Shown: positions 5,789 through 18,160, numbered from the stretch's first letter. The stretch is DNA of 64,000 nt from an uncultured Thermoanaerobaculia bacterium (GCA_964476605.1 CAYZBH010000006.1:5476-69475), one strand, 5' to 3'. Notes: generated by a model from the sequence alone, not told the origin. Numbers and translations: made by a program.

Positions 5789-7665
5789 CGGGCGTCGGCT
5801 CCCAGGATCTCGCGGATCTTCGCGACGATCTCGTGGCGGAAGAAGGGCTTGCCTTGGACCTTGGAGTAGGAGATCACGGGCTCGAGAAAGCGCCCCTGCA
5901 AGAGCAGCGCGAGCTGGCCCAGGTTCATTTCGGGCACCAGCACCCGCTCGAAGCGCGCCAGGACGTCTCCGAGGTTGCTCGGGAAGGGATTGAGGTATCG
6001 CAGATGCGCCCGGCTCACCCGGAGCCCGTCGCGCCGGGCCTGATTCACGGCGCCGGTGATCGCCCCCGCGGTCGAGCCCCAGCCGAGCACCAGGAGAGCG
6101 TCCCCGGGCGTACCGTCGACTTCGAGCGGCGGGATGTCGCGGGCGATCCGCTCCACCTTCTCGGCCCGCAAGTGGATCATCCGCTCGTGGTTCATCGGAT
6201 CGTAGGAGACGGCGCCGCTCCCGTCCTGCTTCTCGAGGCCGCCGATCCGATGCTCCAGACCGGGCGTGCCCGGGATCGCCCAGGGACGCGCGAGCGTCTC
6301 CGGATCGCGCCGGTAGGGCTGGAAGCCCTCGACCTGGGCGTGGAATTCCACCGGGAACTCGGGGAGCGTGGCGACGTCCGGGAGGCGCCACGGCTCCGAA
6401 CCGTTCGCCAGGTAGCCGTCGGAGAGCAGCACCACCGGCGTCATGTAGCGCACCGCGAGGCGCGAAGCCTCGAGCGCCATCGCGAAGCAATCGGCCGGAG
6501 AAGAGGCGGCGAGCACCGGCATCGGCGACTCGTTGTTGCGCCCGAAGAGCGCCTGCAGCAGGTCGGCCTGCTCCGTCTTGGTGGGAAGTCCCGTCGAGGG
6601 TCCGCCCCGCTGCACGTCGACCACGACCATCGGCAGCTCGACCATCACCGCCAGGTTCATCGCCTCGCTCTTGAGCGCCAGGCCCGGCCCCGAGGTCGAG
6701 GTCATCGCCAGGGCGCCCCCGAACGCGGCGCCGATCGCCGCGCAAACCGCCGCGATCTCGTCCTCGGCCTGAAAGGTCGTGACCCCGAAGTGCTTGAACT
6801 GCGCGAGGTCGTGCAGGAGGTCCGAGGCGGGCGTGATCGGATAGGCCCCTTGAAAGAGCGGTAGGCCGCAGCGGCGGCTGGCGGCCACGAATCCGAGCGC
6901 CATCGCGGTGTTGCCGGTGATGTTGCGATAGACCCCCGGCTCGAGCTTCGCCGGCACGACCTCGTAGCGCGTCTGAAAGGCCTCGGTGATGTCGCAGAAG
7001 TTCCAGCCCGCCTTGAGCACCTTGACGTTGGCCTCGGCGAGGTCGGGCTTGGCCGCGAACTTCGCGTGGATCCAGCGCTCGGTGGCCTCCAGCGGGCGCG
7101 AGAAGAGCCAGTAGGCCATGCCGAGCGCGAAGAAGTTCTTGCAGCGCTCCTGGCTCTTCGCGTCGAGCTTGCTCCCCTCGAGGGCGCGGCGCGTCAGCGT
7201 CGCGAGCGGGGCCGGGAAGAGCTGGTAGCGCGCCAGCGAGTCGTCCTCGAGCGGATTCGCCTCGTAACCCGCCTTCTTGAGATTGCGCTCCTCGAACTCG
7301 TCGGTGTTGACGATCAGGATGCCGTTGGACTTGAGGTCGGGGAGATTGACCTTCAGCGCCGCGGGATTCATGGCCACCAACACGTCCGGCGCGTCGCCCG
7401 GCGTGTGGATGTCGTAGTCGGCGATGCGCACCTGGAAGGCGGAGACGCCGGGCAGCGTGCCGGCGGGCGCGCGGATCTCGGCCGGAAAGTCCGGAAAGGT
7501 CGCGAGGTCGTTGCCGAGCAGCGCCGAGGTGGAGGTGAATTGCGTGCCCGTGAGCTGCATGCCGTCGCCCGAGTCGCCGGCGAAGCGGATGACCACGTCG
7601 TCGCGCCGTTCTGCACCGGCCGGCCGCGAGCGCTTCGAAGGCTTGTCGAGGGTGTCGAGACTCAT
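5785..7665 (-). CDS. korA: 2-oxoglutarate:ferredoxin oxidoreductase alpha subunit.
   Basis: 626 aa with MSLDT...VVIRFAGDSGDGMQLTGTQFT...AYPITPASDLLH...GGPSTGLPTKTEQADL. KorA-type fused pyruvate-flavodoxin-oxidoreductase domains III/I. Confidence 0.9.
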   Translation of the reverse strand: MSLDTLDKPSKRSRPAGAERRDDVVIRFAGDSGDGMQLTGTQFTSTSALLGNDLATFPDFPAEIRAPAGTLPGVSAFQVRIADYDIHTPGDAPDVLVAMNPAALKVNLPDLKSNGILIVNTDEFEERNLKKAGYEANPLEDDSLARYQLFPAPLATLTRRALEGSKLDAKSQERCKNFFALGMAYWLFSRPLEATERWIHAKFAAKPDLAEANVKVLKAGWNFCDITEAFQTRYEVVPAKLEPGVYRNITGNTAMALGFVAASRRCGLPLFQGAYPITPASDLLHDLAQFKHFGVTTFQAEDEIAAVCAAIGAAFGGALAMTSTSGPGLALKSEAMNLAVMVELPMVVVDVQRGGPSTGLPTKTEQADLLQALFGRNNESPMPVLAASSPADCFAMALEASRLAVRYMTPVVLLSDGYLANGSEPWRLPDVATLPEFPVEFHAQVEGFQPYRRDPETLARPWAIPGTPGLEHRIGGLEKQDGSGAVSYDPMNHERMIHLRAEKVERIARDIPPLEVDGTPGDALLVLGWGSTAGAITGAVNQARRDGLRVSRAHLRYLNPFPSNLGDVLARFERVLVPEMNLGQLALLLQGRFLEPVISYSKVQGKPFFRHEIVAKIREILGADAR

Positions 7666-7749: not shown

Positions 7750-8640
7750 TCAGCCGCCGACGACCTCGCCGCGCCCCCCTCGCAGCAGCTCGAGGAGGGG
7801 TGCCGTCACCGTCTCCGGGTGCTCCCAGAGAATGAAGTGCCCCGCCCCGGGATAGCGGTGGACGACCAGGTTGGCCGCCGGCAGGACGCCTTCGACGAAG
7901 TCGGCGTTGGCGGGCGGAACCAGCCGATCGGCCGTCCCCTGCACCAGACGCACCGGGCAGCGGATCTCCGGCCAGCGCGGCGCCATCCTCTCGAGCTCGC
8001 CGCGGAGCGGCCAGAGCTCCCGGTTCGAGACCACCCAGTCGATGGGCAGCAGGAGCTGGATCAGCCGCCAGGAGCCCGCGACGTTGAACCAGCGGCGCCG
8101 CTCGAGGACCGGGTCGACCGACGGCGCGACCAGCAGCAGACCCGCCACGAGGTCGGGTCGGTCCATCGCCAGGCGCGCGGCGATCGGCCCGCCCAGACTG
8201 TGCCCCACCACCACCGCGGGCGGCCCGGCCTCGCTTTCGAGCACCGCCGCGAGCGCCTCCGCCTGACGCGCCAGCGATGGCTCCGCGTGGCCACGCCCCG
8301 AGCCGCCGTAGCCCGGCCGGTCGGGCGCCAGCAAACGCGCTGCCCCGGTGAGCCCGGGCTCGGTCAGGAAGATCCGCCAGGCCTCCCAGGTCCCCGGCGA
8401 TCCGTGCACGAAGAGAACGCGGGGCGCTCCCGGCTCGGCGCGTCCGGCGGTCACCACGTGGACCGGTCCGTCCGGGCCGGCGACGAAGCGGCTCACGAGA
8501 GCGGCGGCGCGCATCGCCGGCGTATCCACCGCGGGGGCGAACGAGGGGCCGAAAATCGCGCAACCCGCCGCCAACGCCAGGATGCCGGCGAGCGCGGCTG
8601 CGGCGATCCATCCCCACCGACGGCTGATCCCGGTTCGCAT
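7750..8640 (-). CDS. Alpha/beta-hydrolase fold lipoprotein (lipase/esterase or epoxide-hydrolase-like).
   Basis: 296 aa. Signal peptide with lipobox LAAGC, then VLFVHGSPGTWEAW, nucleophile elbow GHSLGG, C-terminal HFILWEHPE (catalytic His). Last gene of the 7750-15970 operon. Confidence 0.75.
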   Translation of the reverse strand: MRTGISRRWGWIAAAALAGILALAAGCAIFGPSFAPAVDTPAMRAAALVSRFVAGPDGPVHVVTAGRAEPGAPRVLFVHGSPGTWEAWRIFLTEPGLTGAARLLAPDRPGYGGSGRGHAEPSLARQAEALAAVLESEAGPPAVVVGHSLGGPIAARLAMDRPDLVAGLLLVAPSVDPVLERRRWFNVAGSWRLIQLLLPIDWVVSNRELWPLRGELERMAPRWPEIRCPVRLVQGTADRLVPPANADFVEGVLPAANLVVHRYPGAGHFILWEHPETVTAPLLELLRGGRGEVVGG

Positions 8641-8664
8641 CGGCTGGCCCCCCCCTCGCCGAGC

Positions 8665-10737
8665 CTACCTCGCGAGCTCTCGACCTCCGAGCCAGCTGAG
8701 GAGCAGCGGCAGGGCGAAGACCGAGAGCAGCATCGACCAGACCACGCCGAGCGAGAGCACGCCCGCGAACGAGGCCAGCCCGCGATGCGCGGTGAAGGCG
8801 AGCGGACCGAAACCCGCGAGCGTATTGAGCGCATTGATGAGCAGCGTTCGTCCGGTGCCCGAGAGCGTGCGCCCGAGGTCCCCCGCCTCGGAGCGGAAGC
8901 GGTGGGTGAGATGCACGCCGTTGTCCACCGAAACGCCGACGACGATCGGCAGCGCGAGGATGTTGAGCGGGTTGAGATCCAGGCCCAGGAGCCGCATGCC
9001 GCCAAGGAGACCGGTCATCGTGAGGGCGGTCGGGGCGAGCGCGAGCAACGTCCAACGGACGCTGCGAAAGTCGGCTGCGGCCATCGCCAACGCGAGCAAC
9101 GCCGCGAGCACGCCCGTGATGGCGAGGGCGCGCTGCGAGCGCCCGATCATGAACTCGCCGAGCACCGGCATGCCGGTGACCCCGGGATCGAGCCGGCGCA
9201 TCTCGGCGAGGAAAGCGTCGCGGAACTCGGGCTCCCAGATGTCCCCTGCCGGATAGGCGTAGACGGCGAAGCGCCCCGCGGAGTCCACGAAGCTCTTCTC
9301 GAGATCTCGCAGCTCCGCGCTCTCGGAGCCGCCCGCGAGCGCCTGGAGGCGCTCGAGGTCGAGCTCCGAGCGCACCTGCCCGACGAGCGGCGAGGCTCTG
9401 AGCTCGTTCACGAGCGCTCGCGCGGCGTTCCGGTCGGCCGCCACGAAGGCGGCGAATTGCGGCGACAGCGCCGACCGCTTCACCATCTCACGCTCCAACC
9501 GCACCGCCTCCGACCCCACCGGTTGGAGGTCGAGGTAGTCGCCGTCGAAGCGGGGCCAGGGCAGAACGATGCCGACGAGCGCCGCGCCGAGCAGGAGCAG
9601 AGTGCCGCCCGGGCGCTGGCATCGCACCAGCACGGCGCCGAAGAGGCGTTCGCGCGCTCCGCGATCGCCGGACGTCCGGCGCGGCAGCAGCGCGAGGAGC
9701 GCCGGCAGCAGGGTCACCGCCGCAACCAGTGACAGGAGGATGCCGAGCCCCGCCATCCAACCGAGCTCCGCGAAGCCCCGAAAGCCGGAGACGGTGAGCG
9801 TGAAGAGGGCGAGAGCGGTGGTGAGCGCGCCGGTCGCGAGCCCGCGCCCCAACCGGCGCACCCCTTCCGCCACCGCGCCCGGGAGCTGCCAGCCCAGCAG
9901 CTGCAGCTCCTCCGTACGATCGACGACGTGGATCCCGTAGTCGATCCCTTGGCCGAACAGGGTCGAGAAGAAGAACGCCGAGACGAGCGTCAGATGTCCG
10001 GGGACGAAGGCCGCGACGCCGAGGGTCGCCGCCATCGCGGCGAGCAACGCTCCGGTCGCCGCGAGCGGCCAGAGCCATTCGTGGAACCCCGCCACGAACA
10101 GCGCCACGACCAGCACCAGCGAGAGCAGCGAGAGGCGCGAGAGGTCGCGCTGGATGATGTCGCGATCGTCGAGCGCGTACTGCGGCAGGCCGGTGAAACC
10201 GGCGTGGATCCCCGCCGCGTCGAGAGCCTCCGCCGCGATCTCGGCCCGCACGCCGGCCACGAAGGGGGCGATCTTCTCGGCGCGGGACTCGGCGTCGGCG
10301 GGCTGCACGAAGACGAAGGCCATCCCCCGGTCGTCGGTCATCAGGTGGGGCTCGAGGCCCAGGGCCTCGAGCGTCGCATCCGGGAACGGGAGGCGGGAGA
10401 GCGCGGCGCGGACGTCGTCGCGCCGTCGCACCGCGGCCGCGATCCGGTCCGCGGCTTCGCCCAGCACCTCGGGATCTCCCCCTTCGAGCGCCACCACCAG
10501 CATGTTGGGCGTTCCGAAGCGGGCCGCGAAGTCGCGGAAAGCGGCGACCGGCGGGAGCCTCGGATCGATCAGGTCGAGATTCGACGTCTTGAGCCCGAGC
10601 CGCGTCACCGTGAGGGCGAGCGCGACCGCCACGATCGCGAGGGCGAGGACGAGCGTGACGACGGGGCGCGCCGCCGACCGCGCCGCCAGGGCGCCGAGGA
10701 GCTCCCCCCAGCGATCCCGCTCGCCCGAGCCGCTCAC
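8665..10737 (-). CDS. MMPL/RND-superfamily exporter (HpnN-like, sterol-sensing-domain type).
   Basis: 690 aa with two repeats of TM1, a large periplasmic loop and a 5-TM bundle. The MMPL-like segments GIDYGIHVVDR and VSVDNGVHLTHRF lie in the two halves. The ATG overlaps the stop of the upstream cytochrome fusion gene (ATGA at 10734-10737). Confidence 0.8.
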   Translation of the reverse strand: MSGSGERDRWGELLGALAARSAARPVVTLVLALAIVAVALALTVTRLGLKTSNLDLIDPRLPPVAAFRDFAARFGTPNMLVVALEGGDPEVLGEAADRIAAAVRRRDDVRAALSRLPFPDATLEALGLEPHLMTDDRGMAFVFVQPADAESRAEKIAPFVAGVRAEIAAEALDAAGIHAGFTGLPQYALDDRDIIQRDLSRLSLLSLVLVVALFVAGFHEWLWPLAATGALLAAMAATLGVAAFVPGHLTLVSAFFFSTLFGQGIDYGIHVVDRTEELQLLGWQLPGAVAEGVRRLGRGLATGALTTALALFTLTVSGFRGFAELGWMAGLGILLSLVAAVTLLPALLALLPRRTSGDRGARERLFGAVLVRCQRPGGTLLLLGAALVGIVLPWPRFDGDYLDLQPVGSEAVRLEREMVKRSALSPQFAAFVAADRNAARALVNELRASPLVGQVRSELDLERLQALAGGSESAELRDLEKSFVDSAGRFAVYAYPAGDIWEPEFRDAFLAEMRRLDPGVTGMPVLGEFMIGRSQRALAITGVLAALLALAMAAADFRSVRWTLLALAPTALTMTGLLGGMRLLGLDLNPLNILALPIVVGVSVDNGVHLTHRFRSEAGDLGRTLSGTGRTLLINALNTLAGFGPLAFTAHRGLASFAGVLSLGVVWSMLLSVFALPLLLSWLGGRELAR

Positions 10738-12668
10738 GAGCCCCGCTCCGCTCCCGGCGGGCGGCGGGGACCCGCGAGGCGCAGCACGAACTCCACCAGG
10801 TCGGCGACCTCTCCCGGGCGGAGCGTCTCGTGCCCCGGCATCGAGGTCGGCGGCGCCCCGAAGCGCACCAGGCGCTCGAGCTCGCGCCGCTCACCCGCCG
10901 CGTCGAGACCCGGCGGCAGGTGGATGAAGAAGCCCTTGGCGAGGTCCATGGCCGGGCGCGCGATCGACGCCGCGAGCGCTCCGTCGCCGCGCCCGGACGC
11001 GCCGTGACAAGGGGCGCAGAGCGCCGCGAAGAGGCGCGCTCCGCGCGCCGCCGAGGGGGCTCCCGTCGCGGTCTCCGGCGGGAGCGCCGCCACCTGCCGC
11101 GCGCGCTCGTCGGCGTGCCCCGCGCCCAGGCTGCCGAGATAGGCGACCAGATCGCTCCCCCGCCGCCCGTCGCCCGCGAAGAGGTCGGCATAGGAGGGCA
11201 TCCGCGAGCCGGGGATCAGAGCGCGGGGATTCGCCAGGTGGACGCGCTGCCAGAAGTCGCTCCGTCGCAGGCCGACGTTCGCGAGATCCGGGCCTTGGCG
11301 CCGCATGCCGACGAGCGGCGGCTGCTCGGCGCGATCGAGCGCGCGCGCGGGCCCCCAGAGCGCCTCGTCGCGAGTCCCGGGGCGGACGAATTGCGAGTGG
11401 CAGTGGATGCACCCCTCGGCGACGTAGACGGCGCGCCCGCGAGCGACGGCGGAGCGATCGTCGAGCGGGGACCTTCCGGCGCAGCCGGTCGCCCCGAGGC
11501 CGAGAGCGCCGACGAGCGCCGGGACCACGGCCGCTGCGAGCCACGATCCCTGGCTCTGCCGGCCTCGGACGAGCGCGAAGGTCCCGACGAGCAGCGCCCC
11601 GGCGCCGAGGACCGCCGTCGTCGGCACGCGCCCGAGATCCTGCGCCATGCCGACGCCGAGCGCCGAGCCCACCCATCCGGAGATCCCGTAGAGCACTCCC
11701 GCGCGCCACCCCGGGCGCCCTGCCGCGGGTTCCGCGAGCGCCGGAAAGGCGACGAGCGCGGTCGAGTAGATGGCAATCCCGATCGCGTAGAGCCAGGCGC
11801 CGGCGCGCGCCGAGGGACCGCCTGCCGCGAGGATCGGGAAGGCGAGCGCGAAGAGCCCCCAGGTGGCGAGGAGCGCGACCTTCCAGCGCCCGCGCTCCAG
11901 CCAGAGTCCCGCGGCGAACGCGGCGGCGAAGTGCACGATCCCTTGCACGAGGGTCCAGGCGCCACCATCCCAGGAGACCGCGGCGAGCGCGGGGGCCCCA
12001 TGGAGGACGGCGAACGCCGCCGCATCGAGCCCGACCAGCAACAGGAAGGCAATCGCCGCGGCCGCCAGCGGAAGGGTCTCGCGATTCGCGAGCGGTGGGC
12101 TCGGCTCGCCCGCCCCGCGCGGCGGCAGGAAAGCGGCCACCGCGGCGAGCAGGGCGGGCTCCCACGCCCGGAGCTCGATCGAGCCCGCGAAGAGCGGCGG
12201 CAGATTGGAGAGGAGATAGGCGAGACCGGTGCCGGCGCCCACGACGAGCGCCGGCCGACCGCTCCTCGAGAGTCGAGCCAGGTTTCCCGCGAGAGCGACG
12301 GTGAGGATCCCCACCGAGAGACCGATCGCCGCGGCCGTCGCCGCCAGGGCGAAGGGAGCGCGCGCGAAGGGCGATGCCGCGGCGACGACGGCCGCCAGCG
12401 CGAGGCCGAAGGAGACGGCGCGGGTCGCCTCGAAACGCTCGAGCCGGCGCCCCATCCCCAAGCTCGCCAGAAGCCCCGCGATCCCCATGGCGGCCATCGC
12501 CGCGCGAACTCCGTCTCCGTCGAGCGACCGCTGGAGCTGCTCGAGGAAGCCGAACTGCGCGAACAGGAGGAAGAGGTGATAGGTCGCCGCGATCGCCAGG
12601 AGCAGGCGACGATCCGCGACCAGAGCCCGCCCGATCGCAGCGAGCGCACCCCGCGCTCCGGCGCTCAC
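10734..12668 (-). CDS. Three-part fusion: MFS-like transporter domain, then a CcoO/FixO-type monoheme cytochrome c, then a second class-I c-type cytochrome domain.
   Basis: In-frame translation from a GTG at ~12668, which overlaps the stop of the small upstream gene as GTGA. It gives ~390 aa of MFS-like membrane domain (GIAGLLASLGMGRRLERF = MFS motif A-like, many TM helices). Then a TM anchor plus GRAVYVAEGCIHCHSQFVRP...QGPDLANVGLRRSDFWQRVHLANPRALIPGSRMPSY, which matches the FixO/CcoO signature EGCxxCHSQ...GPDLxxVGxxxxxxWxxxHLxNPRxxxPxSxMPxY. Then a second heme site LFAALCAPCHGASGRGDG...TSMP. The first ~154 codons of track ORF 10734..13130 are Arg-rich and overlap a better ORF in another frame, so I exclude them. 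Confidence 0.7.
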   Translation of the reverse strand: MSAGARGALAAIGRALVADRRLLLAIAATYHLFLLFAQFGFLEQLQRSLDGDGVRAAMAAMGIAGLLASLGMGRRLERFEATRAVSFGLALAAVVAAASPFARAPFALAATAAAIGLSVGILTVALAGNLARLSRSGRPALVVGAGTGLAYLLSNLPPLFAGSIELRAWEPALLAAVAAFLPPRGAGEPSPPLANRETLPLAAAAIAFLLLVGLDAAAFAVLHGAPALAAVSWDGGAWTLVQGIVHFAAAFAAGLWLERGRWKVALLATWGLFALAFPILAAGGPSARAGAWLYAIGIAIYSTALVAFPALAEPAAGRPGWRAGVLYGISGWVGSALGVGMAQDLGRVPTTAVLGAGALLVGTFALVRGRQSQGSWLAAAVVPALVGALGLGATGCAGRSPLDDRSAVARGRAVYVAEGCIHCHSQFVRPGTRDEALWGPARALDRAEQPPLVGMRRQGPDLANVGLRRSDFWQRVHLANPRALIPGSRMPSYADLFAGDGRRGSDLVAYLGSLGAGHADERARQVAALPPETATGAPSAARGARLFAALCAPCHGASGRGDGALAASIARPAMDLAKGFFIHLPPGLDAAGERRELERLVRFGAPPTSMPGHETLRPGEVADLVEFVLRLAGPRRPPGAERGS

Positions 12669-13072
12669 CGCGCCACGATCCTCCGCGCGGCGGGACGCAA
12701 GGCGAGTTGGAGAGCGGCGACGAGCGCGTCGTAGCCACCCACCCAGAGCCAAGGCGCCCCCAGCGCTCCGCTCGCCACCGAGACCGCGAGAAAGCCAGCA
12801 ACCGCGAAGCGCGGCAGAGCGGTCAGCGCGAAGGCCGCCCGCAAGCGGTCGCCCCGTTCCGAGGCGGGCGCTGCGAACGGCCAGAAGTAGGCGGCGCCGA
12901 CGCTCGCGACGAAGGTGCCGACGAACCGCAGCAGCACCGGCTCCGCGACCGCGGGGAGCGCCAGCAACCGCAGCACCAACTCCGGCGCCGCGAGCAGGGC
13001 GAGACCCGTTCCGAGGTCCCCCGCCCCCGCGGCGATGGCGAAGAGCGGCGCGCTGCGTGCGCGATCGATCAC
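12665..13072 (-). CDS. Small hydrophobic membrane protein (~135 aa, about 4 TM), unknown function.
   Basis: The C-terminal 135 codons of track ORF 12665..14173 are protein-like and hydrophobic (PLFAIAAGAGDLGTGLALLAAPELVLRLLALPAV...GALGAPWLWVGGYDALVAALQLAL), while the upstream part of that ORF is Arg-rich noise. A GTG at ~13072 overlaps the stop of the upstream gene (GTGA), and its own stop overlaps the GTG of the downstream cytochrome fusion. No homology assignable. Confidence 0.45.
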   Translation of the reverse strand: MIDRARSAPLFAIAAGAGDLGTGLALLAAPELVLRLLALPAVAEPVLLRFVGTFVASVGAAYFWPFAAPASERGDRLRAAFALTALPRFAVAGFLAVSVASGALGAPWLWVGGYDALVAALQLALRPAARRIVAR

Positions 13073-14409
13073 CGGGACACCCGGCGCGCGGCACGCCACC
13101 AGAGGAGCGAAGCGATGAGCATCGAGGCACCCCCTAGCCAGCGGAGCGAGTAGAGCACGGAGATCGGCGTCAGCTCGCCGGGAAGGGCGCTCCAACCCGC
13201 GCCCGGATCGCCCCCCTCGACCCACCCGGCCGCGGCCAGGACGAGGATCTGGAGCAAGCATCCCGCCTGCCAGAGCAGAAAAGGGCGCCCCGCCGTCAGC
13301 CCTGCGGCCACGCCGTCGGGAGCCGAGGCGACGAGTAGCAGCATGCCGAAGGCGCTCATCATGCCCGCCATCGCGAGGTGCGCGTGCGCGACGAGGCCGT
13401 CGGTGAACTTCAGACGATCGAGCACGCCGGGCTGGAAGGTCGCGAGCGCGCTCGCGAGCAAGAGCCCTCCCCACGCGAGAAAGGCGATCCGCCAGCGTCG
13501 CGTCGGCTGGGGCCAGTGGTGGGCGGCGTAGAGGCGCGGCAGGAAGACGGCCCAGACGAGCAGCGAGGCGAGCGCGAGCTGCTCGAGGGTGTCGCGGTGC
13601 GTCCGCTCGCCATGGTCGAGCCCGAGGAAGACCATCGTGTGCAGCGCCAGGAGGGCGACGATCCAGGCGCTCCGCGGCGACGAGCGGCGACGCTCGAGAC
13701 CCAGGAAGGCCGGCGCGGCGACGAAGATCCAGATCACTCCGAGCGTCGAGCCGAGCAGGCTGACGCCCGTCGGCCCTCCGCTCGCGGGGTTGACCGGCGG
13801 ATAGGTCGCGTCGCTCTCGCCCAGAGCGAGCCACGCGGGAACGCTGAGCAGCACGAGCCAGAGCGCCGCTCTGGCGAACCACGGCCGCGAGCCACCGCTT
13901 CCGGGCCCGCCATCCCGCGTCCTTCCCGGACGGGTGCGCCAGAGTCCGACGCCGAGCACGGCCGCGAGTGACAGCTGCGCGGCGACGAACGCGAGGTTCG
14001 CGGGACCTCTCCAGTCGAGGAACGGCTTGCCCCCGCTCCCACCCAGGAGCCAGCTCGCGGTTCCGGCGACGAGAGCGAGCGACCAGAGCCCGAGGGCGAG
14101 ACGCCCCAGCCCGCACTCGCGCGGACCCAGGAAGAGACGGAAGAGGAGCCCAACGAGCGGTAGCGCCCCCCAACCGTAGAGCTCGAGATCGAGGTGGACG
14201 GTCGCCCAGCGCCCGTAGCTCAAGGGCGCGAGAACGTCACCCAGCCGGGGCGCGAGCAGCAGGGTGGCGAGCAGCAGTCCCACCCCGTTCGCCCCGACGA
14301 GCCACCCGAGGGCATGACGCGCGACCAGGCGGCCGAGCTCCCCTTCCCACGCGACGACGATCTCCGCCCGCGGCAGCGCGTGATCCTCGCCGTGCGTCGC
14401 TCGGGTCAC
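13069..14409 (-). CDS. His-rich polytopic membrane protein (446 aa, ~10-12 TM). Possible heme/copper-binding redox subunit. Not a canonical CcoN.
   Basis: Hydrophobic throughout. Conserved-looking His sites lie at TM boundaries: H32, H72 (RWATVHLDLELYGW), H257/H266/H271, an HH pair (LYAAHHWPQ) and an HxH (LVAHAHLAMAGMM). The ATG at 14409 overlaps the polyprenyl synthase stop (ATGA) and its stop overlaps the next gene. Confidence 0.6.
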   Translation of the reverse strand: MTRATHGEDHALPRAEIVVAWEGELGRLVARHALGWLVGANGVGLLLATLLLAPRLGDVLAPLSYGRWATVHLDLELYGWGALPLVGLLFRLFLGPRECGLGRLALGLWSLALVAGTASWLLGGSGGKPFLDWRGPANLAFVAAQLSLAAVLGVGLWRTRPGRTRDGGPGSGGSRPWFARAALWLVLLSVPAWLALGESDATYPPVNPASGGPTGVSLLGSTLGVIWIFVAAPAFLGLERRRSSPRSAWIVALLALHTMVFLGLDHGERTHRDTLEQLALASLLVWAVFLPRLYAAHHWPQPTRRWRIAFLAWGGLLLASALATFQPGVLDRLKFTDGLVAHAHLAMAGMMSAFGMLLLVASAPDGVAAGLTAGRPFLLWQAGCLLQILVLAAAGWVEGGDPGAGWSALPGELTPISVLYSLRWLGGASMLIASLLWWRAARRVSR

Positions 14410-15353
14410 GCGCAGCGGCGGCTCGTCGCGCGCAACCCGAGCTCCGCCGCTTCGGCTTCGAAATGGCGCTGGAGCCTCGAGAGCGGCCGGCGCATCGTCT
14501 CTCCGAGCTCTGGCGCCGCCAAGGTACGGGCCGCCCTGGCGAGAAGATGGGCGAGCCTTCGACGGGCCCGCCCCTCCCCGGCGAGTCTCGGGAGACTGGG
14601 ACGTCCCAGGGTCCGGTCCCGCGCCCCGGTCTTACCGCTCTCCGCGACGGAAAAATGCTCGTCCTTGAGGTCGTCGAGCCCCTGATACGCGAGACCCCAG
14701 CTCTCGGAGAGGCGCTCGAGCCGGCCGAGCACCTGGTCGCTCGCTCCGGCCACCAACGCCGGCAGCACGATCGCGAGCCGGATCAGCGGCACCGTCTTGC
14801 CCCGCGCCACCCGGAAGGCCGCTTCCGCTCCTCGCGCCGACGCCTCCGCCTCCGAGCCGAAGTGCAGATCGCGCGACTGGCCGTCGAGCAGCCCGGCCAC
14901 CCCGAGCGAGCGCTCGACCAGATCCGCCGCCGCTTGGCGGCGCACCGCCGGGAGAGTGGCGAGCACCTGCCAGAGGAGCGCGTAGCCACGGGTGATCAGC
15001 GCGAGAGCTCCGAGGATCGCCGCCCCTTCGCCGAAGGCTCGGTGCGGACAGGGCCGCCCGCGGCGCTCCGCGGCGTCGTCCATCGACGGGAGATCGTCGA
15101 AGACGAGAGAGGCGCTGTGAAAGTACTCGACCGCGATCGCGAGCCGGCGCGAAGCTGTGGCGTCGAGCCCCTGCGCGGTCGCGATGCCGAACGCGAGTTG
15201 CGCCCGGCCGAGGCTACCGGGGTGGCGAAGCAGGTCCGCGAGCACCGCCCGCAGCCGAGGCTCGACCGCCGCGGACACCGACAGCGAGCCGGAGAAGGCC
15301 TGCCGGAGCCGGGCCAGCTCGACCGGCGAAACCAGGCGAGGCGCGTCGCTCAA
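14406..15353 (-). CDS. Polyprenyl diphosphate synthase (trans-isoprenyl diphosphate synthase family, IspB/GGPPS-like).
   Basis: First aspartate-rich motif LVFDDLPSMDDAAERRGRP (FARM, DDxxD) and second motif GLAYQGLDDLKD (SARM). The first ~38 codons of track ORF 14406..15467 are Arg-rich and overlap the YceI gene. A TTG at ~15353 overlapping the YceI stop (TTGA) is proposed as the start. Start uncertain. Confidence 0.8.
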   Translation of the reverse strand: MSDAPRLVSPVELARLRQAFSGSLSVSAAVEPRLRAVLADLLRHPGSLGRAQLAFGIATAQGLDATASRRLAIAVEYFHSASLVFDDLPSMDDAAERRGRPCPHRAFGEGAAILGALALITRGYALLWQVLATLPAVRRQAAADLVERSLGVAGLLDGQSRDLHFGSEAEASARGAEAAFRVARGKTVPLIRLAIVLPALVAGASDQVLGRLERLSESWGLAYQGLDDLKDEHFSVAESGKTGARDRTLGRPSLPRLAGEGRARRRLAHLLARAARTLAAPELGETMRRPLSRLQRHFEAEAAELGLRATSRRCA

Positions 15354-15970
15354 CGGCCACCGCCCGCCGATCCGCTCGCGTCGCTCAAATTCCCTTCCGC
15401 GTGCACGCTCACGGTGACCACGGGGTCGACGCGCAGGAAGAAGATGCTCGGATCGTGCAGGCCCCACTCCACGAAGGGGACGGCGAAAGAGGTCTCCGCG
15501 ACCGCCCGGGTTCCCTGAATCTCCGCCTTGACGGGCAAGGCCAGCGGATGCGCGACGCCGTGCAGCTGAAACGTCCCGTGCAGGGTGAACTCCCCCTTGC
15601 CGCTCTCGGGGACTGTTCCTTCGACGCGATCGATCGCGAGCACGATCTCCGGGAACTTCACGATCTCGAGCACGTCCTGCCGCATCGTCTTGTCCCGGCT
15701 CTTGTTGCCAGTCTCGCCGCCCGTGGCGTCGACCACGATCTCGCCGGAGGCCGCGCCGCTCGCCGAATCGAAACGGAGCGAGCCCCGCGTGAGGTGAAAC
15801 GATCCTTCGACGTCGTGTCCGGTCGCGGGAAGGGCGATCGTGACGCGCGTCGCTTCCGCGGCGAGATCGAGCTGGCGCTCGCTCGCCCGGGCGGCCCCGG
15901 GCGCGAGCGCCGTCAGGGCCATGAGGACGATCCCGAATCCCTGCTGCTTCGACTGTGCTCTCGCGCTCAA
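15350..15970 (-). CDS. YceI-like periplasmic polyisoprenoid-binding protein.
   Basis: 206 aa with signal peptide MSARAQSKQQGFGIVLMALTALAPGAARA, then a YceI-like 8-stranded barrel sequence including FTLHGTFQLHGVAHPLALPVKAEI (cf. YceI LTLHGVTKPV). Start codon appears to be TTG. Confidence 0.8.
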   Translation of the reverse strand: MSARAQSKQQGFGIVLMALTALAPGAARASERQLDLAAEATRVTIALPATGHDVEGSFHLTRGSLRFDSASGAASGEIVVDATGGETGNKSRDKTMRQDVLEIVKFPEIVLAIDRVEGTVPESGKGEFTLHGTFQLHGVAHPLALPVKAEIQGTRAVAETSFAVPFVEWGLHDPSIFFLRVDPVVTVSVHAEGNLSDASGSAGGGR

Positions 15971-16109
15971 CGGTCCTCCGAGTTCTTTCCCCCCAGCTCC
16001 GCCGCTTCGTTGCGGCCGACCCGGCTCACGCCGAGGAGCGCATCCTGGAGACTCCGAATGAACGCTCCGTGAACGGCCATGAGGCGCGCGGTTCCGCTAT
16101 ATTGATGCC

Positions 16110-16796
16110 GTGCGTCTCCTGATCGTGGAGGACGAACGGCCGCTGGCGCTCCACCTCGCGAAGGGACTCCGCGAGGAGGGGTTCGCCGTCGACGTCGCGG
16201 CCACCATCGAGCAGGCCAGCGAGCTCACCGTCGAGACCTCCTACGACCTCGTGCTGCTCGACCGCGGCCTCCCCGACGGGGACGGGGTCCGGCTCCTCCA
16301 CGCGCTGCGGGAGCAGGGGTGGACGGCGCCGGTCCTCGTGCTGACGGCCCGCGATCTCACCTCGGACAAGGTCGAAGGCCTGGACTCCGGCGCCGACGAC
16401 TACCTGACGAAGCCCTTCGCCTTCGCGGAGCTGCTGGCGCGGGTGCGGGCCCTCCTCCGGCGCCGGGGCCTCGAGCCGGCGATGGTCCTGACGGTGGACG
16501 ATCTGCGCCTCGACCGGACCGCGCGCTTGGCCGAGCGCGCCGGAGCCCCGCTCGAGCTCACGCCGAAGGAGTACGCGCTGCTCGAGTACCTGATGCTGCA
16601 CGCCGGCGCCGCGAAGTCACGCGCCGAGATCGCCGAGCACGTCTGGGACCTCTCGTACGAAGCGCGCAGCAACGTCATCGACGTCATCGTCGCCCGCCTC
16701 CGGCGCAAGCTCGAGGCGGGTGGCCGGCCTCGCCTGCTGCAGTCGGTGACCGGGCTCGGCTACGCGCTCCGTCGCCTCGAGGAGGAGCCGACCTGA
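16110..16796 (+). CDS. OmpR-family response regulator (receiver plus winged-helix DNA-binding).
   Basis: VRLLIVEDERPLALHLAKGL...LLDRGLPDGDG...DDYLTKPFAFAELLARV...LTPKEYALLEYLM...VIDVIVARLRRKLE. GTG start at 16110. Confidence 0.9.
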   Translation: MRLLIVEDERPLALHLAKGLREEGFAVDVAATIEQASELTVETSYDLVLLDRGLPDGDGVRLLHALREQGWTAPVLVLTARDLTSDKVEGLDSGADDYLTKPFAFAELLARVRALLRRRGLEPAMVLTVDDLRLDRTARLAERAGAPLELTPKEYALLEYLMLHAGAAKSRAEIAEHVWDLSYEARSNVIDVIVARLRRKLEAGGRPRLLQSVTGLGYALRRLEEEPT

Positions 16797-18160
16797 TTCG
16801 CGCCCGTTCTCTCCGACGCGCCTTCGCCTGGTGGTTCGGGACGACGATGGTCGCCCTCTACGGCTTGACCTCGACCGCGATCTGGTATCAGAGCCGGTCC
16901 ACCTCGCGCAGCTTCGCGGTCCTCTCGCTGAAGACGGAGGCGGAGGCGATCGCGAGCTACCTCGCTTCGAGCCGACGGATCGACCCGCCGGAGCTCGCCG
17001 AGCCCGAGCATTCGGCGCTGCCCCTCTGGATCCGCATCCTCGAGGAGGGTCAGGTCGTCGGCGCGACGCCCGGCATTCCCGACCTGCCGGTCGCGGCCGG
17101 GCTGCCGGACCTCCGGAGCACGGACCAGGTGCGCTATCTCGAGTCTCCCATGCCGCTCGCGGTCGTGCAGCACGAGGTCGGCGGCCGCCGCCCCGGCATG
17201 ATCGTCGAAGCGGTGGGCTCGCTCGTCGATCTCCGCCGCCGCGAGCGCAAGCTCGGGCTCGGGCTCCTCCTGGGCGGTCTCGCGGTGCTCCCTTTGGCGG
17301 GTCTCGGCGGTCGCTGGCTCGCCGGACGTACCCTGCGCTCGCTCGATTCCCTCGTGGGTTCCATCCGCCGCATCGAGTCCGGTTCGCCGGGCTCGCGGCT
17401 CACCCTCCCCCCGAGCTCGTTCGAAGAGGTCGCGATCGTCGCCAACGCCTTCAACGACCTGCTGGAGCGTCTGCAGGCGACGCTCGAGGGGATGCGACGC
17501 TTCACGGCCGACGCCTCGCACGAGATCCGCAATCCGCTTTCGGTGCTCCGGACCGGCCTCGAGGTGGCGCTGCGGCGCCCCCGCGCTCCGGAGGAGTACC
17601 AACTGCTCCTCCGCCAGAACCTGCGCGAGATCGAACGTCTGGATGCGGTGGTGGAGGGTCTCCTCGCGCTCGCCCGCCAGGAACCGGGGAGCGGCGTCGC
17701 GCTCGCGCGCGCCCCTCTCGACTTCTCCGGGCTCCTGACGCAGACCCTGGAGAGCTTCGCGGTGGTGGCGGCGGAACGGGGCGTGACGCTCGACGGCGGC
17801 ATACCGCGCGGCCTGCGGGTGGAAGCGGACGAACGGCTGCTCCGGCTGGTGACGTTCAACCTGCTCGACAATGCCCTCAAGCACAGCCCCGAAGGGAGCA
17901 GCGTCCGGCTCCGCCTGACGTCCGTCGAGGGCCAGCTCGCCCTGCGGGTCAGCGATCAGGGCCCAGGCGTCCCCGAGGACGAACGTCCCCGCCTCTTCGA
18001 CCGCTACTTCCGCGGCCGCGACGCCTCGACCCGCGGCGGCACGGGCGGCCTCGGTCTCTCCGTCGTGCGCTGGGTCGTGGAGGCGCACGGTGGCACGGTG
18101 CGCCTCGTTCCCGATCCGCCCGGAACGACCTTCGAGGTCCTGCTCCCCGCCCTCGTCTAG
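16793..18160 (+). CDS. Sensor histidine kinase (2 TM periplasmic sensor, HisKA plus HATPase_c), partner of the OmpR regulator.
   Basis: H-box ADASHEIRNPLSVL, N-box FNLLDNALKHSPEG, G-boxes DQGPGVPEDE and GGTGGLGLSVV. The coding frame continues from the response-regulator stop (TGA 16794-16796). The exact start is unclear; a CTG at 16793 or a nearby non-ATG start is possible. Confidence 0.85.
   Translation: MIRARSLRRAFAWWFGTTMVALYGLTSTAIWYQSRSTSRSFAVLSLKTEAEAIASYLASSRRIDPPELAEPEHSALPLWIRILEEGQVVGATPGIPDLPVAAGLPDLRSTDQVRYLESPMPLAVVQHEVGGRRPGMIVEAVGSLVDLRRRERKLGLGLLLGGLAVLPLAGLGGRWLAGRTLRSLDSLVGSIRRIESGSPGSRLTLPPSSFEEVAIVANAFNDLLERLQATLEGMRRFTADASHEIRNPLSVLRTGLEVALRRPRAPEEYQLLLRQNLREIERLDAVVEGLLALARQEPGSGVALARAPLDFSGLLTQTLESFAVVAAERGVTLDGGIPRGLRVEADERLLRLVTFNLLDNALKHSPEGSSVRLRLTSVEGQLALRVSDQGPGVPEDERPRLFDRYFRGRDASTRGGTGGLGLSVVRWVVEAHGGTVRLVPDPPGTTFEVLLPALV

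Follow-up and report, generated by a model that had tools for sequence, protein, structure and literature searches.

The window, a 64,000-nucleotide stretch of DNA from an uncultured Thermoanaerobaculia bacterium, carries seven consecutive minus-strand genes between positions 7750 and 15970 (Table 1). They encode a YceI-family protein, a prenyl diphosphate synthase, a membrane protein related to subunit I of the haem-copper oxidases (HCOs), a small membrane protein (p135), a fusion of an MFS domain with two cytochrome c domains, an RND/MMPL exporter and a lipoprotein hydrolase. These genes, their order and their coordinates were initially proposed in a sequence-only reading of the window and proved real on an ORF check. 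All seven frames bear a coding signature, with GC3 of 0.86-0.91 against GC2 of 0.50-0.60. Start and stop codons overlap by 4 nt at five junctions (15350, 14406, 13069, 12665 and 10734), where the tetranucleotides are, in this order, TTGA, GTGA, GTGA, GTGA and GTGA, two of them previously misread as ATGA. The MMPL and hydrolase genes are separated by a 24-nt gap without overlap. The overlaps show operonic coupling but lend no support to the obligatory co-translation that had been deduced from them.

Table 1. Features of the operon and of the adjoining two-component system
Feature	Coordinates	Strand	Remarks
YceI-family lipocalin-like protein, 206 aa	15350..15970	-	first operon gene; PF04264
Short-chain trans-prenyl diphosphate synthase (predicted), 315 aa	14406..15353	-	TTG start overlaps YceI stop
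HCO-like subunit, 446 aa, 12 TM	13069..14409	-	haem-copper-oxidase subunit I fold
p135, 135 aa, ~4 TM	12665..13072	-	family unassigned; between 'N' and 'O' genes
MFS::CcoO::cytochrome c fusion protein, 644 aa	10734..12668	-	
MFS-fold 12-TM domain of the fusion (residues 1-370)	11559..12668	-	
Two periplasmic monohaem domains of the fusion, CcoO-like then cytochrome c	10734..11441	-	up to stop codon
RND/MMPL exporter, HAE3/HpnN-like, 690 aa	8665..10737	-	PF03176
Lipoprotein alpha/beta-hydrolase, 296 aa	7750..8640	-	co-directional; Abhydrolase_1/6
Divergent intergenic region, 139 bp, YceI gene to response-regulator gene	15971..16109	.	shared control region presumed
OmpR-family response regulator	16110..16796	+	divergent from operon; Response_reg, Trans_reg_C
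Sensor histidine kinase	16793..18160	+	partner of the regulator; TIGR01386 best NCBIfam match

Conservation across genomes

The cluster occurs in soil and freshwater Acidobacteriota and Verrucomicrobiota. Synteny was assessed in 80 loci fetched from Acidobacteriota, Verrucomicrobiota and Lentisphaeria, out of 379 genome matches in all. The same gene order recurs in the 80 loci, with overlaps of the same kind (L081), which bears out the description of the cluster as tightly coupled. Because this order is shared across three phyla, the locus is beyond chance and is a genuine conserved operon. The synthase and p135 genes are each syntenic in 75 loci, the MFS domain in 73 and the cytochrome c in 70. 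In 65 loci a YceI gene is found no more than 8 kb from the HCO-like gene; the other 15, some of them truncated, lack one. An RND/HpnN-like MMPL exporter is encoded in 26 loci and an FtsX/MacB-type ABC exporter in 50, never both together, and the four loci with neither are all on truncated contigs. Since these non-orthologous pumps replace each other, export appears to be integral to function.

The divergent OmpR-type two-component system pointed out by the sequence-only reading is also a recurrent neighbour, its response regulator being syntenic in 52 of the 80 loci and its kinase family kept in about 40. The conserved unit therefore consists of six genes plus the two-component system. The alpha/beta-hydrolase, formerly counted as a member of the operon, falls outside it, with a homologue in a single locus of the 80 and none in the closest relatives (L001 and L002). 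A metallo-beta-lactamase-fold hydrolase is encoded in 22 of the loci and an Idi gene in one. In Edaphobacter modestus (L050), a CopA-like multicopper oxidase gene, which is not among the conserved neighbours, lies just downstream.

Several gene families were absent from the conserved neighbourhoods of the 80 loci: ccoQ, ccoP and ccoGHIS; UbiA-type transferases, terpene synthases and cyclases; and denitrification and hopanoid genes. A canonical CcoN is likewise absent from the window. This agrees with the earlier statement that canonical CcoN, CcoQ and CcoGHIS are lacking, and with the view that the locus is not that of a cbb3 oxidase, a cNOR, a hopanoid (hpn) cluster or ubiquinone synthesis: it is one conserved cluster and not a canonical example of any of these.

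The HCO-like subunit and its lost canonical metal site

The 446-aa protein, previously an anonymous "His-rich membrane protein", has the 12-TM fold of HCO subunit I (AF2 pLDDT 86.9). Its family profile matches CcoN at E 2.5e-7, with recognisably homologous N-terminal helices, making it a distant CcoN/NorB homologue and a very divergent HCO subunit I; the CcoO domain encoded nearby hence sits with its usual kind of partner. No Pfam match was obtained for the window protein even at E <= 10, nor any NCBIfam match. A precomputed PF00115 match is carried by few homologues and not by most, and was found for 0 of 120 Acidobacteriaceae-type homologue matches.

As in cbb3 oxidases, counterparts of three CcoN histidines can be recognised: H72 aligns with His60, and H342 and H344 with His345 and His347. 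The window protein thereby has both low-spin haem ligands (H72 and H344) and the high-spin ligand (H342), and, judging from alignment and model, it would bind two b-type haems. Across 325 members of the HCO-like family, H72 and H342 are 100% conserved and H344 is conserved in 56%. In about 43% of members H344 is replaced by Leu or Phe, and those of them that were scored all come from ABC-type loci; family members thus differ at the low-spin haem site.

The canonical CuB/FeB site of three histidines, one in helix 6 and two at the end of helix 7, is absent, as is the FeB site of three His and one Glu found in cNOR. Residues 73-256 of the window protein contain no His, and every helix-6 column holds less than 4% His among the 325 members. 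The CcoN segment WWYGHNAV aligns to a gap, and the helix-6 region of the family reads NPxxGGPTGxSLLGSTLG, in which the invariant positions are N, T and S, neither His nor Glu. The cross-link Tyr is also missing: CcoN LYIWAGPHH aligns to FLGL--D-HGE in a pairwise alignment that is of low confidence at this point. H271 is 84% conserved and position 272 is His in 61% of members and Arg in the window protein; the two residues represent, at most, a shifted vestige of the helix-7 HH pair. Position 257 is His in 38% and Glu in 47% of the family, and His/Glu257, H271 and H272 could form a substitute non-haem metal site. Sequence and model together suggest that the subunit has no second metal.

The features lost here (helix-6 His, cross-link Tyr and strict helix-7 HH) are those that define O2- and NO-reducing HCOs. 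All known families of such enzymes retain the three metal histidines, with one Asp swap in gNOR, and cNOR and qNOR add a Glu for FeB (PMC11214002). The HCO-like protein resembles the NO-reductase families in the missing cross-link Tyr, and cNOR in having a membrane-anchored cytochrome c as partner. It differs from NORs, which keep three His (one exchanged for Asp in gNOR), in the outright deletion of the helix-6 ligand, and from B-family-derived NORs in the absence of their CuA-type subunits. According to the sequence-only reading, a bona fide CcoN at this position would have made the locus a known cbb3 variant; with no PF00115 match, no helix-6 ligand and no cross-link Tyr, the protein does not score as one.

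p135 and the MFS::CcoO::cytochrome c fusion

p135 gave no match in Pfam and NCBIfam searches, and its conserved residues are G16, D19, T22, G23, R88, W108, D114 and Q121. In five cluster representatives (P0383, P0403, P0414, P0468 and P0490), it is fused onto the C-terminus of the HCO-like protein, and a single 1130-aa protein elsewhere unites HCO, MFS, CcoO and cytochrome c. These gene fusions support a physical complex of HCO-like protein with p135, and of MFS with CcoO and cytochrome c; the earlier notion of one complex holds to this extent and no wider.

The fusion protein begins with a 12-TM MFS fold, followed by a 13th TM helix (residues 376-396), a CcoO-like domain (residues 410-498, C420xxCH, M490) and a second cytochrome c domain (residues 540-631, C551xxCH, M610). 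Both CxxCH motifs and both Met residues are invariant (alignment A2). The protein scores 78.8 bits for FixO, 52.3 bits for Cytochrom_C and 42.2 bits for Cytochrome_CBB3. The FixO score exceeds the PF02433 cut-off of 29.6 for a match that spans only profile positions 52-142 of 219, and the NCBIfam ccoO equivalog, at 76 bits, stays below its cut-off of 200.65.

The core, a membrane haem complex, comprises the HCO-like subunit, p135, and the MFS domain fused to the CcoO-like and second cytochrome c domains, and derives from the cbb3/NOR branch of the HCOs. In common with cbb3 oxidases (CcoN-CcoO-CcoQ-CcoP), it has a genuine FixO/CcoO domain with a second c-haem domain behind it, equivalent to CcoO plus CcoP. 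Unlike in cbb3, a 12-TM MFS domain precedes CcoO in the same polypeptide, 'N' and 'O' are separated by an additional 4-TM subunit, the HH pair is degenerate, and a prenyl synthase and a lipid exporter are constant companions of the core. The association of an MFS protein with a cbb3-type enzyme is reminiscent of CcoA/CalT, but in the present protein MFS domain and cytochrome subunit are joined covalently, and the copper-binding motifs MxxxM (TM7) and HxxxM (TM8) are missing from the conserved MFS helices, which read WLDSAAFA (helix 7) and QGxVHLxAAxGAG (helix 8).

The two-component system and an improbable role in metal homeostasis

The best NCBIfam matches of the two-component system are heavy-metal families, TIGR01387 for the response regulator (211.7 bits, cut-off 279.2) and TIGR01386 for the kinase (210.7 bits, cut-off 292.55), both below their cut-offs. 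By sequence, the pair resembles the Cu- and H2O2-responsive CusRS and HprRS. A sigma-70 consensus scan of the 139-bp intergenic region, uninformative in this phylum, returned no promoter-like site.

A role in copper or metal homeostasis, with the MFS domain as a CcoA-like copper transporter, the c-haems as redox partners of the metal and a regulator of the CopRS/CusRS kind, would account for these heavy-metal matches. Precedent for it exists in CcoA, an MFS protein reported to import copper for cbb3 oxidases (PMC4725013), and the multicopper oxidase of E. modestus would fit as well. This reading is nevertheless very improbable: both two-component matches lie under curated cut-offs, helices 7 and 8 carry LDSAAF and VHxxAA instead of MxxxM and HxxxM, the multicopper oxidase is not a conserved neighbour, and the prenyl synthase, YceI and lipid exporter are left without a role.

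Predicted isoprenoid synthesis, export and carriage

The YceI-family protein scores 70.8 bits against PF04264 (cut-off 23.7), and an N-terminal hydrophobic signal peptide read from its sequence predicts secretion. Among solved structures, E. coli YceI (1y0g) and T. thermophilus TT1927b (1wub) come closest to it. The synthase (PF00348, 105.7 bits, cut-off 27) has both Asp-rich motifs of its class, DDLPSMDD and DDLKD. Its best NCBIfam matches are FPP/GGPP synthases, every one below cut-off, and its nearest solved structures are GGPPS/FPPS (E 1.9e-28), with octaprenyl synthases far weaker. The Ala-Ser at -5/-4 before the first motif presumably recalls CrtE-type GGPP synthases. The enzyme is thus predicted to be of the short-chain FPP/GGPP kind (C15-C20 type), which weakens the quinone side of the isoprenoid/quinone pairing proposed earlier.

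The exporter belongs to the general MMPL family (PF03176, 84.9 bits). Its best NCBIfam match, TIGR03480 (HpnN), reaches 288 bits against a cut-off of 751.85, NF052374 gives 128 bits against 1100, and BstA gives 202 bits. An RND or LolCE/MacB-like ABC pump beside a soluble periplasmic lipid-binding protein is an arrangement shared with HpnN, BstA/BstB/BstC and LolCDE-LolA. Unlike HpnN and Bst, the exporter is far below the equivalog cut-offs and is accompanied by no squalene-hopene cyclase or sterol genes; unlike in Bst and Lol, YceI takes the place of BstB or LolA as carrier, and the pump has a haem complex coupled to it.

With synthase, sporadic Idi, hydrolase, exporter and lipid-binding carrier, the cluster has the components one would expect in a lipid pathway, and the RND-type pump has its closest matches in HpnN and BstA, which transport hopanoids and sterols. 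The locus might accordingly be read as a terpenoid biosynthesis and secretion cluster devoid of any stress role, in which the HCO-like protein would be a tailoring oxidase for a pigment, signal or outer-membrane lipid, the product then being exported and carried by YceI. We consider this improbable, as the cluster has no conserved terpene synthase, cyclase or prenyltransferase, and biosynthesis seldom involves a di-haem c-type connection to the respiratory chain. It also overlaps with the lipid-directed function proposed below, differing mainly in physiological purpose.

Acidobacterial "cbb3 oxidases"

Homologues of the core bear the JGI names 'cytochrome c oxidase cbb3-type subunit 1/2', and the N-x-O core has been annotated as a cbb3 operon in Acidobacteria, its peculiarities unremarked (PMC8407424, PMC5900883). 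The module is undescribed, as had been suggested, in the sense that no paper found describes this conserved cluster, but its N-x-O core is already in print as cbb3. The 'cbb3' genes of Terriglobus roseus and A. capsulatum share the N-unknown-O order (PMC8407424). In expression data that cover O2 limitation only, Terro_4248-4250 and ACP_0885-0888, probable members of the family, are scarcely expressed, with TPM values of about 0-23, and are down-regulated at low O2 (PMC8407424 supplement), and neither set is induced at nanomolar O2 (PMC8407424). In L057, the published T. roseus qPCR primers find sites in the HCO-like gene at exactly the published 283-bp spacing, with 1 and 4 mismatches. These primer matches and the gene order make it probable that the T. 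roseus "cbb3 oxidase" belongs to the HCO-like family.

There is only a very slight chance that the JGI names and the two Acidobacteria papers are right and that the core is an ordinary, if divergent, cbb3-type cytochrome c oxidase with unrelated neighbours. The few homologues that reach PF00115 and the CcoO domain above its Pfam threshold speak for such an enzyme. They are outweighed by the missing helix-6 CuB ligand and cross-link Tyr, by the lack of a PF00115 match in the window protein and most homologues, by the absence of ccoP/Q and ccoGHIS, and by the want of induction of the putative T. roseus and A. capsulatum members. Synteny also links the core across three phyla to YceI, the prenyl synthase (75/80) and one lipid-type exporter. 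The cluster core, labelled a high-affinity oxygen reductase by databases and papers, is probably not one.

Proposed function

We tentatively propose that the core is a cytochrome-c-linked, copper-less haem complex that acts on or with an isoprenoid lipid exported to YceI, in envelope protection or remodelling. The synthase would make the isoprenoid in the cytoplasm, where the metallo-beta-lactamase-fold hydrolase of some lineages may trim it. The MFS domain might bring this isoprenoid, or a compound derived from it, to the periplasmic leaflet, a flippase role that is speculative. The HCO-like subunit, whose copper-less pocket above the high-spin haem is enlarged, could there oxidise or reduce the lipid or lipid radicals, exchanging electrons by way of the two c-haems with the cytochrome c pool of the periplasm. 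Extraction of the lipid would then fall to the RND or ABC pump, which would pass it to YceI for the periplasm or the outer membrane. Against this scheme stands the fact that no conserved gene converts the prenyl diphosphate to a defined lipid.

It is rather unlikely that the complex is instead a cytochrome c-fed reductase of a small molecule (O2, NO, H2O2 or another oxidant), working with haem only or with a re-built metal site, to which the isoprenoid, exporter and YceI genes supply a needed lipid or cofactor or are joined as co-regulated stress functions. The copper-free cytochrome bd oxidases show that O2 can be reduced with haem only. The complex retains an intact CcoN/NorB fold that includes both positions for haem ligands, and its electron entry is of the CcoO type. 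His/Glu257, H271 and H272, all semi-conserved, are close to where CuB used to be, the two-component system resembles CusRS/HprRS, and the drop of A. capsulatum transcripts with O2 fits an oxidant-tied role. However, all known O2- and NO-reducing HCO families keep their metal histidines, the Asp of gNOR aside (PMC11214002), whereas here the helix-6 ligand is deleted, the others are clade-variable and the cross-link Tyr is missing. A reductase also leaves unexplained the prenyl synthase and the presence of exactly one lipid-type exporter per informative locus.

For the lipid-directed complex, the likeliest role is envelope protection or remodelling under oxidative or metal stress, the closest analogy being the envelope antioxidant system of YceI (BcnA) and cytochrome b561 (LcoA). 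It is possible, if doubtful, that an HCO scaffold has here been turned into a copper-less haem enzyme acting on an isoprenoid lipid, or lipid radical, that the operon itself supplies. With an MFS flippase domain, an RND or ABC extractor and a YceI carrier, it would then belong to an unrecognised, cytochrome-c-linked pathway for lipid redox chemistry and trafficking in the Gram-negative envelope. To our knowledge, this scaffold has so far been found only to reduce O2, NO and perhaps N2O. If true, the 'cbb3 oxidases' from which microaerobic respiration is predicted for many Acidobacteriota and Verrucomicrobiota of soils do not reduce oxygen.

The secreted YceI lipocalin BcnA and the membrane di-haem cytochrome b561 LcoA act together against lipid peroxidation, as a pair that detoxifies lipid peroxyl radicals (PMC9113575), and YceI relatives bind isoprenoid chains or ubiquinone-8 (PMC9113575, discussion). 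LcoA is a four-helix cytochrome b561, unlike the HCO fold with c-haem wiring found here, and no such protein adjoins YceI in this operon, so the analogy is functional only. The present operon also differs in having its own prenyl synthase, exporter, MFS domain and two-component system, and no aldehyde reductase PsrA. As in BcnA/LcoA and E. coli yceJ-yceI, a YceI lipocalin shares an operon with a membrane protein predicted to bear two b-type haems, and the type of regulator fits a connection with oxidative or envelope stress.

Operon layout and domain content

The operon comprises seven minus-strand ORFs, each with a clear coding signature (GC3 0.86-0.91 versus GC2 0.50-0.60), in the order that the sequence-only reading had listed. 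All five junctions from 15350 down to 10734 are 4-nt start/stop overlaps as had been proposed, although they read TTGA followed by four GTGA rather than TTGA, ATGA, GTGA, GTGA and ATGA; a 24-nt gap separates the terminal hydrolase gene from the preceding one. Searches of the seven products recovered YceI, prenyl synthase, FixO and cytochrome c, MMPL and hydrolase domains, whereas the HCO-like protein, the 135-aa p135 and residues 1-400 of the 644-aa fusion protein matched no Pfam or NCBIfam family, even at E <= 10.

Coordinates and family matches of the features discussed (window positions unless a homologous locus is named)
Feature	Position	Strand	Family match or content
Operon	7750-15970	-	seven ORFs
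YceI-like protein		-	PF04264, 70.8 bits
Prenyl synthase		-	PF00348, 105.7 bits
HCO-like protein, 446 aa	13069-14409	-	
p135, 135 aa	12665-13072	-	
MFS/CcoO-like/cytochrome c fusion, 644 aa	10734-12668	-	FixO (residues 410-498), 78.8 bits; Cytochrom_C (residues 540-631)
Exporter		-	MMPL, 84.9 bits; nearest NCBIfam HpnN, 288 bits, far under the 752 cut-off
Last operon gene		-	alpha/beta-hydrolase
AT-skewed segment	8001-14000		
2-oxoacid:ferredoxin oxidoreductase, two subunits	4760-7665	-	POR_N/POR/PFOR_II, then TPP_enzyme_C subunit
Secreted protein, 1429 aa	18157-22446	-	three DUF11 repeats, Calx-beta, endonuclease/exonuclease/phosphatase domain
Metallo-beta-lactamase-fold hydrolase, locus L012	8029-9009		PF12706
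Multicopper oxidase and 277-aa protein, locus L050	14326-16504		TIGR01480 (oxidase), E 1e-41, under cut-off; no family match (277-aa protein)

The HCO-like subunit

For neither the 446-aa nor the 135-aa protein did a single-sequence PDB search return anything useful. The former has many homologues, chiefly in Thermoanaerobaculia and other Acidobacteriota, which are named 'hypothetical' at NCBI and 'cytochrome c oxidase cbb3-type subunit 1' at JGI; PF00115 is found in only a handful. A profile built from 30 homologues hits three solved CcoN chains over their four N-terminal helices (E 2.5e-7 to 1e-5), aligning H72 with CcoN His60 and the helix-10 'AHAH' with His345/His347, and the AlphaFold model (pLDDT 86.9, pTM 0.89) has twelve long helices. 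Because of this profile match and the confident twelve-helix model, the protein, previously described only as a His-rich membrane protein, is placed, as a distant member, in the C/NOR branch of the HCO superfamily and is a relative of CcoN/NorB. Single-sequence searches do not reveal this relationship, which emerges only when a family profile or the predicted fold is used.

Active-site residues were counted in 325 family members. H72 and H342 are 100% conserved, H32 is kept in 90%, H271 in 84% (Asn in 14%), H272 in 61% (Arg in the window) and H344 in 56% (Leu in 38%, Phe in 5%), while position 257 is His in 38% and Glu in 47%. In the helix-6 region His is present at <=3% in every column of the same 325 members; the window's protein has no histidine between residues 73 and 256, and helix 6 carries the invariant small polar residues N207, T214, S217 and S221. 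The hhalign comparison of the family with one CcoN covers helices 1-4 only, and helices 6-7 were compared by MAFFT alignment and residue counts. Against P. aeruginosa CcoN, MAFFT places 'WWYGHNAV', with the helix-6 CuB ligand, opposite a gap, and 'LYIWAGPHH', with the cross-link Tyr and the HH pair, opposite 'FLGL--D-HGE'. The family lacks the metal ligand of helix 6 and appears to be without the catalytic tyrosine. We infer that the protein contains haem and no replacement metal; H/E257, H271 and H272 could, alternatively, form a displaced metal site. A small-molecule reductase might operate with haem only or with such a rebuilt site, a reading that is credible but on balance unlikely.

In all HCO families the active-site histidines are fully conserved, with the exception of one His-to-Asp exchange in gNOR (PMC11214002), and the present family, compared via published descriptions, fits none of those described. 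Assignment to gNOR, nNOR, eNOR or sNOR was rejected, these being B-family-derived with CuA-type subunits; all four and 'N2O red' were also rejected as being described with three histidines kept (one substitution in gNOR). A widespread family with one ligand deleted and others drifting would represent an HCO scaffold reused for something else.

Positions 257, 266, 272 and 344 co-vary by clade, being H257, H266, R272 and H344 in the window type and mostly E257, R266, H272 and L344 in the Acidobacteriaceae type. Among scored loci, loss of H344 is confined to those with an ABC (MacB-type) exporter (14 of 22), and the residue is kept in 20 of 20 loci with an RND (MMPL/HpnN-like) exporter, the type found in the window. 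This covariation, together with the way H344 loss tracks the exporter, suggests two family subtypes that may differ in haem or metal ligation.

Partner subunits and fusions

The model of the 644-aa protein (pLDDT 85.5) has a 13th helix, at residues 376-396, that leads to the CcoO-like domain. The haem-binding motifs of this domain (C420xxCH, M490) and of the second cytochrome c domain (C551xxCH, M610) are all invariant. CcoA-type copper-binding MxxxM/HxxxM motifs are absent from the MFS part, and identity with a CcoA-like copper importer was rejected for that reason. A search for contigs encoding the window's own fusion protein gave no match; in Verrucomicrobiae bacterium DG1235 the MFS and cytochrome parts are separate adjacent genes. 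p135 has about four TM helices and the conserved polar residues D19, R88, D114 and Q121.

An exhaustive search with the HCO-like family profile over 1.84 billion cluster representatives gave 216 family clusters at E <= 1e-30; relaxing the threshold to E <= 1e-3 raised the number to only 648. p135 is joined to the HCO-like C-terminus in five of those representatives, and one 1130-aa protein combines HCO-like, MFS, CcoO and cytochrome c parts. These fusions argue that the HCO-like, p135 and MFS-cytochrome c products would form one complex.

Conservation of the neighbourhood

Scanning a single genome for each GTDB species identified 379 loci, and the counts in this section refer to the best 80 of them, which were fetched. 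They derive from Thermoanaerobaculia, Holophagales, Acidobacteriaceae, Opitutales, Verrucomicrobiales and Lentisphaeria, and include the isolates Edaphobacter modestus DSM 18101 and Occallatibacter savannae (Acidobacteriota) and strain DG1235 (Verrucomicrobiota). One locus, JAYVZU010000489.1, is assigned to a Rhodanobacteraceae (Gammaproteobacteria) MAG, the only one outside Acidobacteriota, Verrucomicrobiota and Lentisphaeria, and could reflect a binning error or horizontal transfer.

The HCO-like gene is accompanied by the prenyl synthase and p135 in 75/80 loci each, the MFS domain in 73/80, cytochrome c domains in 70/80, YceI in 65/80, a response regulator in 52/80 and the MMPL pump in 26/80. 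In loci without MMPL, the synthase and HCO-like genes are separated by genes for a MacB_PCD/FtsX permease and an ABC ATPase. The two exporters are mutually exclusive (RND in 26, ABC in 50, both in none), and the four loci with neither are all on incomplete contigs. L081, an Acidobacteriaceae locus, again shows tight overlaps, of 4 and 14 nt, and IPP isomerase precedes the synthase in DG1235.

The alpha/beta-hydrolase, which the sequence-only reading had counted as part of the module, is near the HCO-like gene in 1/80 loci and was rejected on synteny. In 22/80 loci, L012 among them, the gene immediately after the cytochrome gene encodes a membrane-anchored metallo-beta-lactamase-fold hydrolase (PF12706). 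This hydrolase is joined to cytochrome domains in the 781-aa cluster representative P0514, which looks chimeric; it is absent from the window, where the unrelated alpha/beta-hydrolase ends the operon. In L081 another alpha/beta-hydrolase is convergent to YceI. Some hydrolase may be a recurrent but replaceable accessory of the operon.

Clustering of non-overlapping ORFs, with high-GC shadow ORFs removed, found no further conserved neighbour family in the 80 loci, and no UbiA-type transferase, terpene cyclase, denitrification gene or ccoGHIS. In E. modestus DSM 18101 (L050) a CopA/CueO-like multicopper oxidase and a 277-aa protein directly follow YceI; as a pair they do not belong to the conserved neighbours, but a similar 281-aa ORF family is present in six loci.

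Published 'cbb3' oxidases of Acidobacteria

The literature search found no paper describing this cluster, which agrees with its earlier designation as an undescribed module, but the core appears to have been reported already under a wrong name. Seven Acidobacteria have been listed with 'cbb3' and hence called microaerobes (PMC5900883). The 'cbb3' genes of T. roseus (Terro_4248-4250) and A. capsulatum (ACP_0885-0888) were expressed at TPM of about 0-23 and down-regulated at low O2, surprising the authors, who left the non-response to nanomolar O2 unexplained (PMC8407424). Their published N-unknown-O order is that of the window operon. Both T. roseus primers find sites in the HCO-like gene of an Acidobacteria MAG (L057), one with 1 mismatch and the other with 4, and the spacing of these sites is exactly the 283 bp that was published. 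For A. capsulatum, several loci contain a site that differs from the reverse primer at 2-3 positions; this primer encodes 'MAMAGF', corresponding to the family's helix-10 'LAMAG' and not to CcoN 'HAGALG'; the forward primer matched none of the fetched loci (best 80 of 379). On the basis of the primer matches and shared gene order, these 'cbb3 oxidases' very probably belong to the HCO-like family, and the apparent absence of the helix-6 ligand and catalytic tyrosine would explain their non-response to O2 in a simple way. An ordinary cbb3 oxidase, as database labels imply (subunits I and II at JGI; 'cbb3-type subunit II' for the fusion at NCBI), is hardly credible for a family with this predicted active site. 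With the labels reassigned, the metabolism predicted for abundant soil phyla would be different.

Proposed function

The analysis shows an HCO-derived complex with two predicted b-type haem sites and two putative c-haems, apparently lacking a canonical binuclear centre. Operon structure and evolution tie it to short-chain isoprenoid synthesis, one of two interchangeable lipid-type pumps and a periplasmic isoprenoid-binding lipocalin. This HCO-superfamily complex has lost the metal site that defines the group and has acquired a lipid context, and there is a real chance that its function is categorically new.

Both Asp-rich motifs are present in the synthase, whose best solved match is a GGPP synthase (E 1.9e-28), octaprenyl synthases scoring about 1e-11 to 1e-14. 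Since its nearest relatives are short-chain FPP/GGPP synthases, a long-chain 'quinone tail' role is unlikely and was rejected, and the suggested quinone link is correspondingly weak. YceI matches the solved E. coli YceI and T. thermophilus TT1927b. That the haem complex is obligatorily paired with a prenyl synthase, one of two interchangeable lipid pumps and YceI suggests a route for isoprenoid trafficking. A purely biosynthetic terpenoid cluster is improbable.

Lipid redox and trafficking in a stress-protective role is the reading tentatively preferred. An isoprenoid or derivative would reach the periplasmic leaflet, possibly via the MFS domain. Its oxidation or reduction would take place in an enlarged pocket above the high-spin haem and involve electron exchange with the cytochrome c pool; the pump would then extract it and hand it over to YceI. 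A weak point of this preferred scheme is that no conserved prenyl-diphosphate-converting enzyme occurs in the neighbourhood (best 80 of 379 loci). Its nearest functional precedent is the BcnA (YceI)/LcoA (cytochrome b561) pair, which limits membrane lipid peroxidation and in which the cytochrome is proposed to re-reduce a lipocalin-held quinone (PMC9113575). The operon may also provide YceI proteins, a family that is poorly understood, with a concrete redox partner.

The regulator and kinase score highest against heavy-metal (CusRS/CopRS) families, under cut-off, with PmrA and HprR close behind. This regulator type and the transcript fall at low O2 are in keeping with a role in oxidant or metal stress. 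Copper homeostasis, which the regulator families would favour and the missing copper motifs of the MFS part would not, is very improbable.

Flanking genes and composition

AT skew across the AT-skewed segment is strongly positive (0.23-0.38, versus about 0 +/- 0.1 in most of the window), probably reflecting the composition of minus-strand membrane-protein genes. The oxidoreductase genes lie on the same strand, 84 nt downstream of the alpha/beta-hydrolase. The gene for the 1429-aa protein is convergent with the histidine kinase gene, and the protein's C-terminus, '...LEIPTLGGPGLAALALLLAGFAALRLRRARV', looks like an IPTL/PEP-CTERM-type sorting signal.
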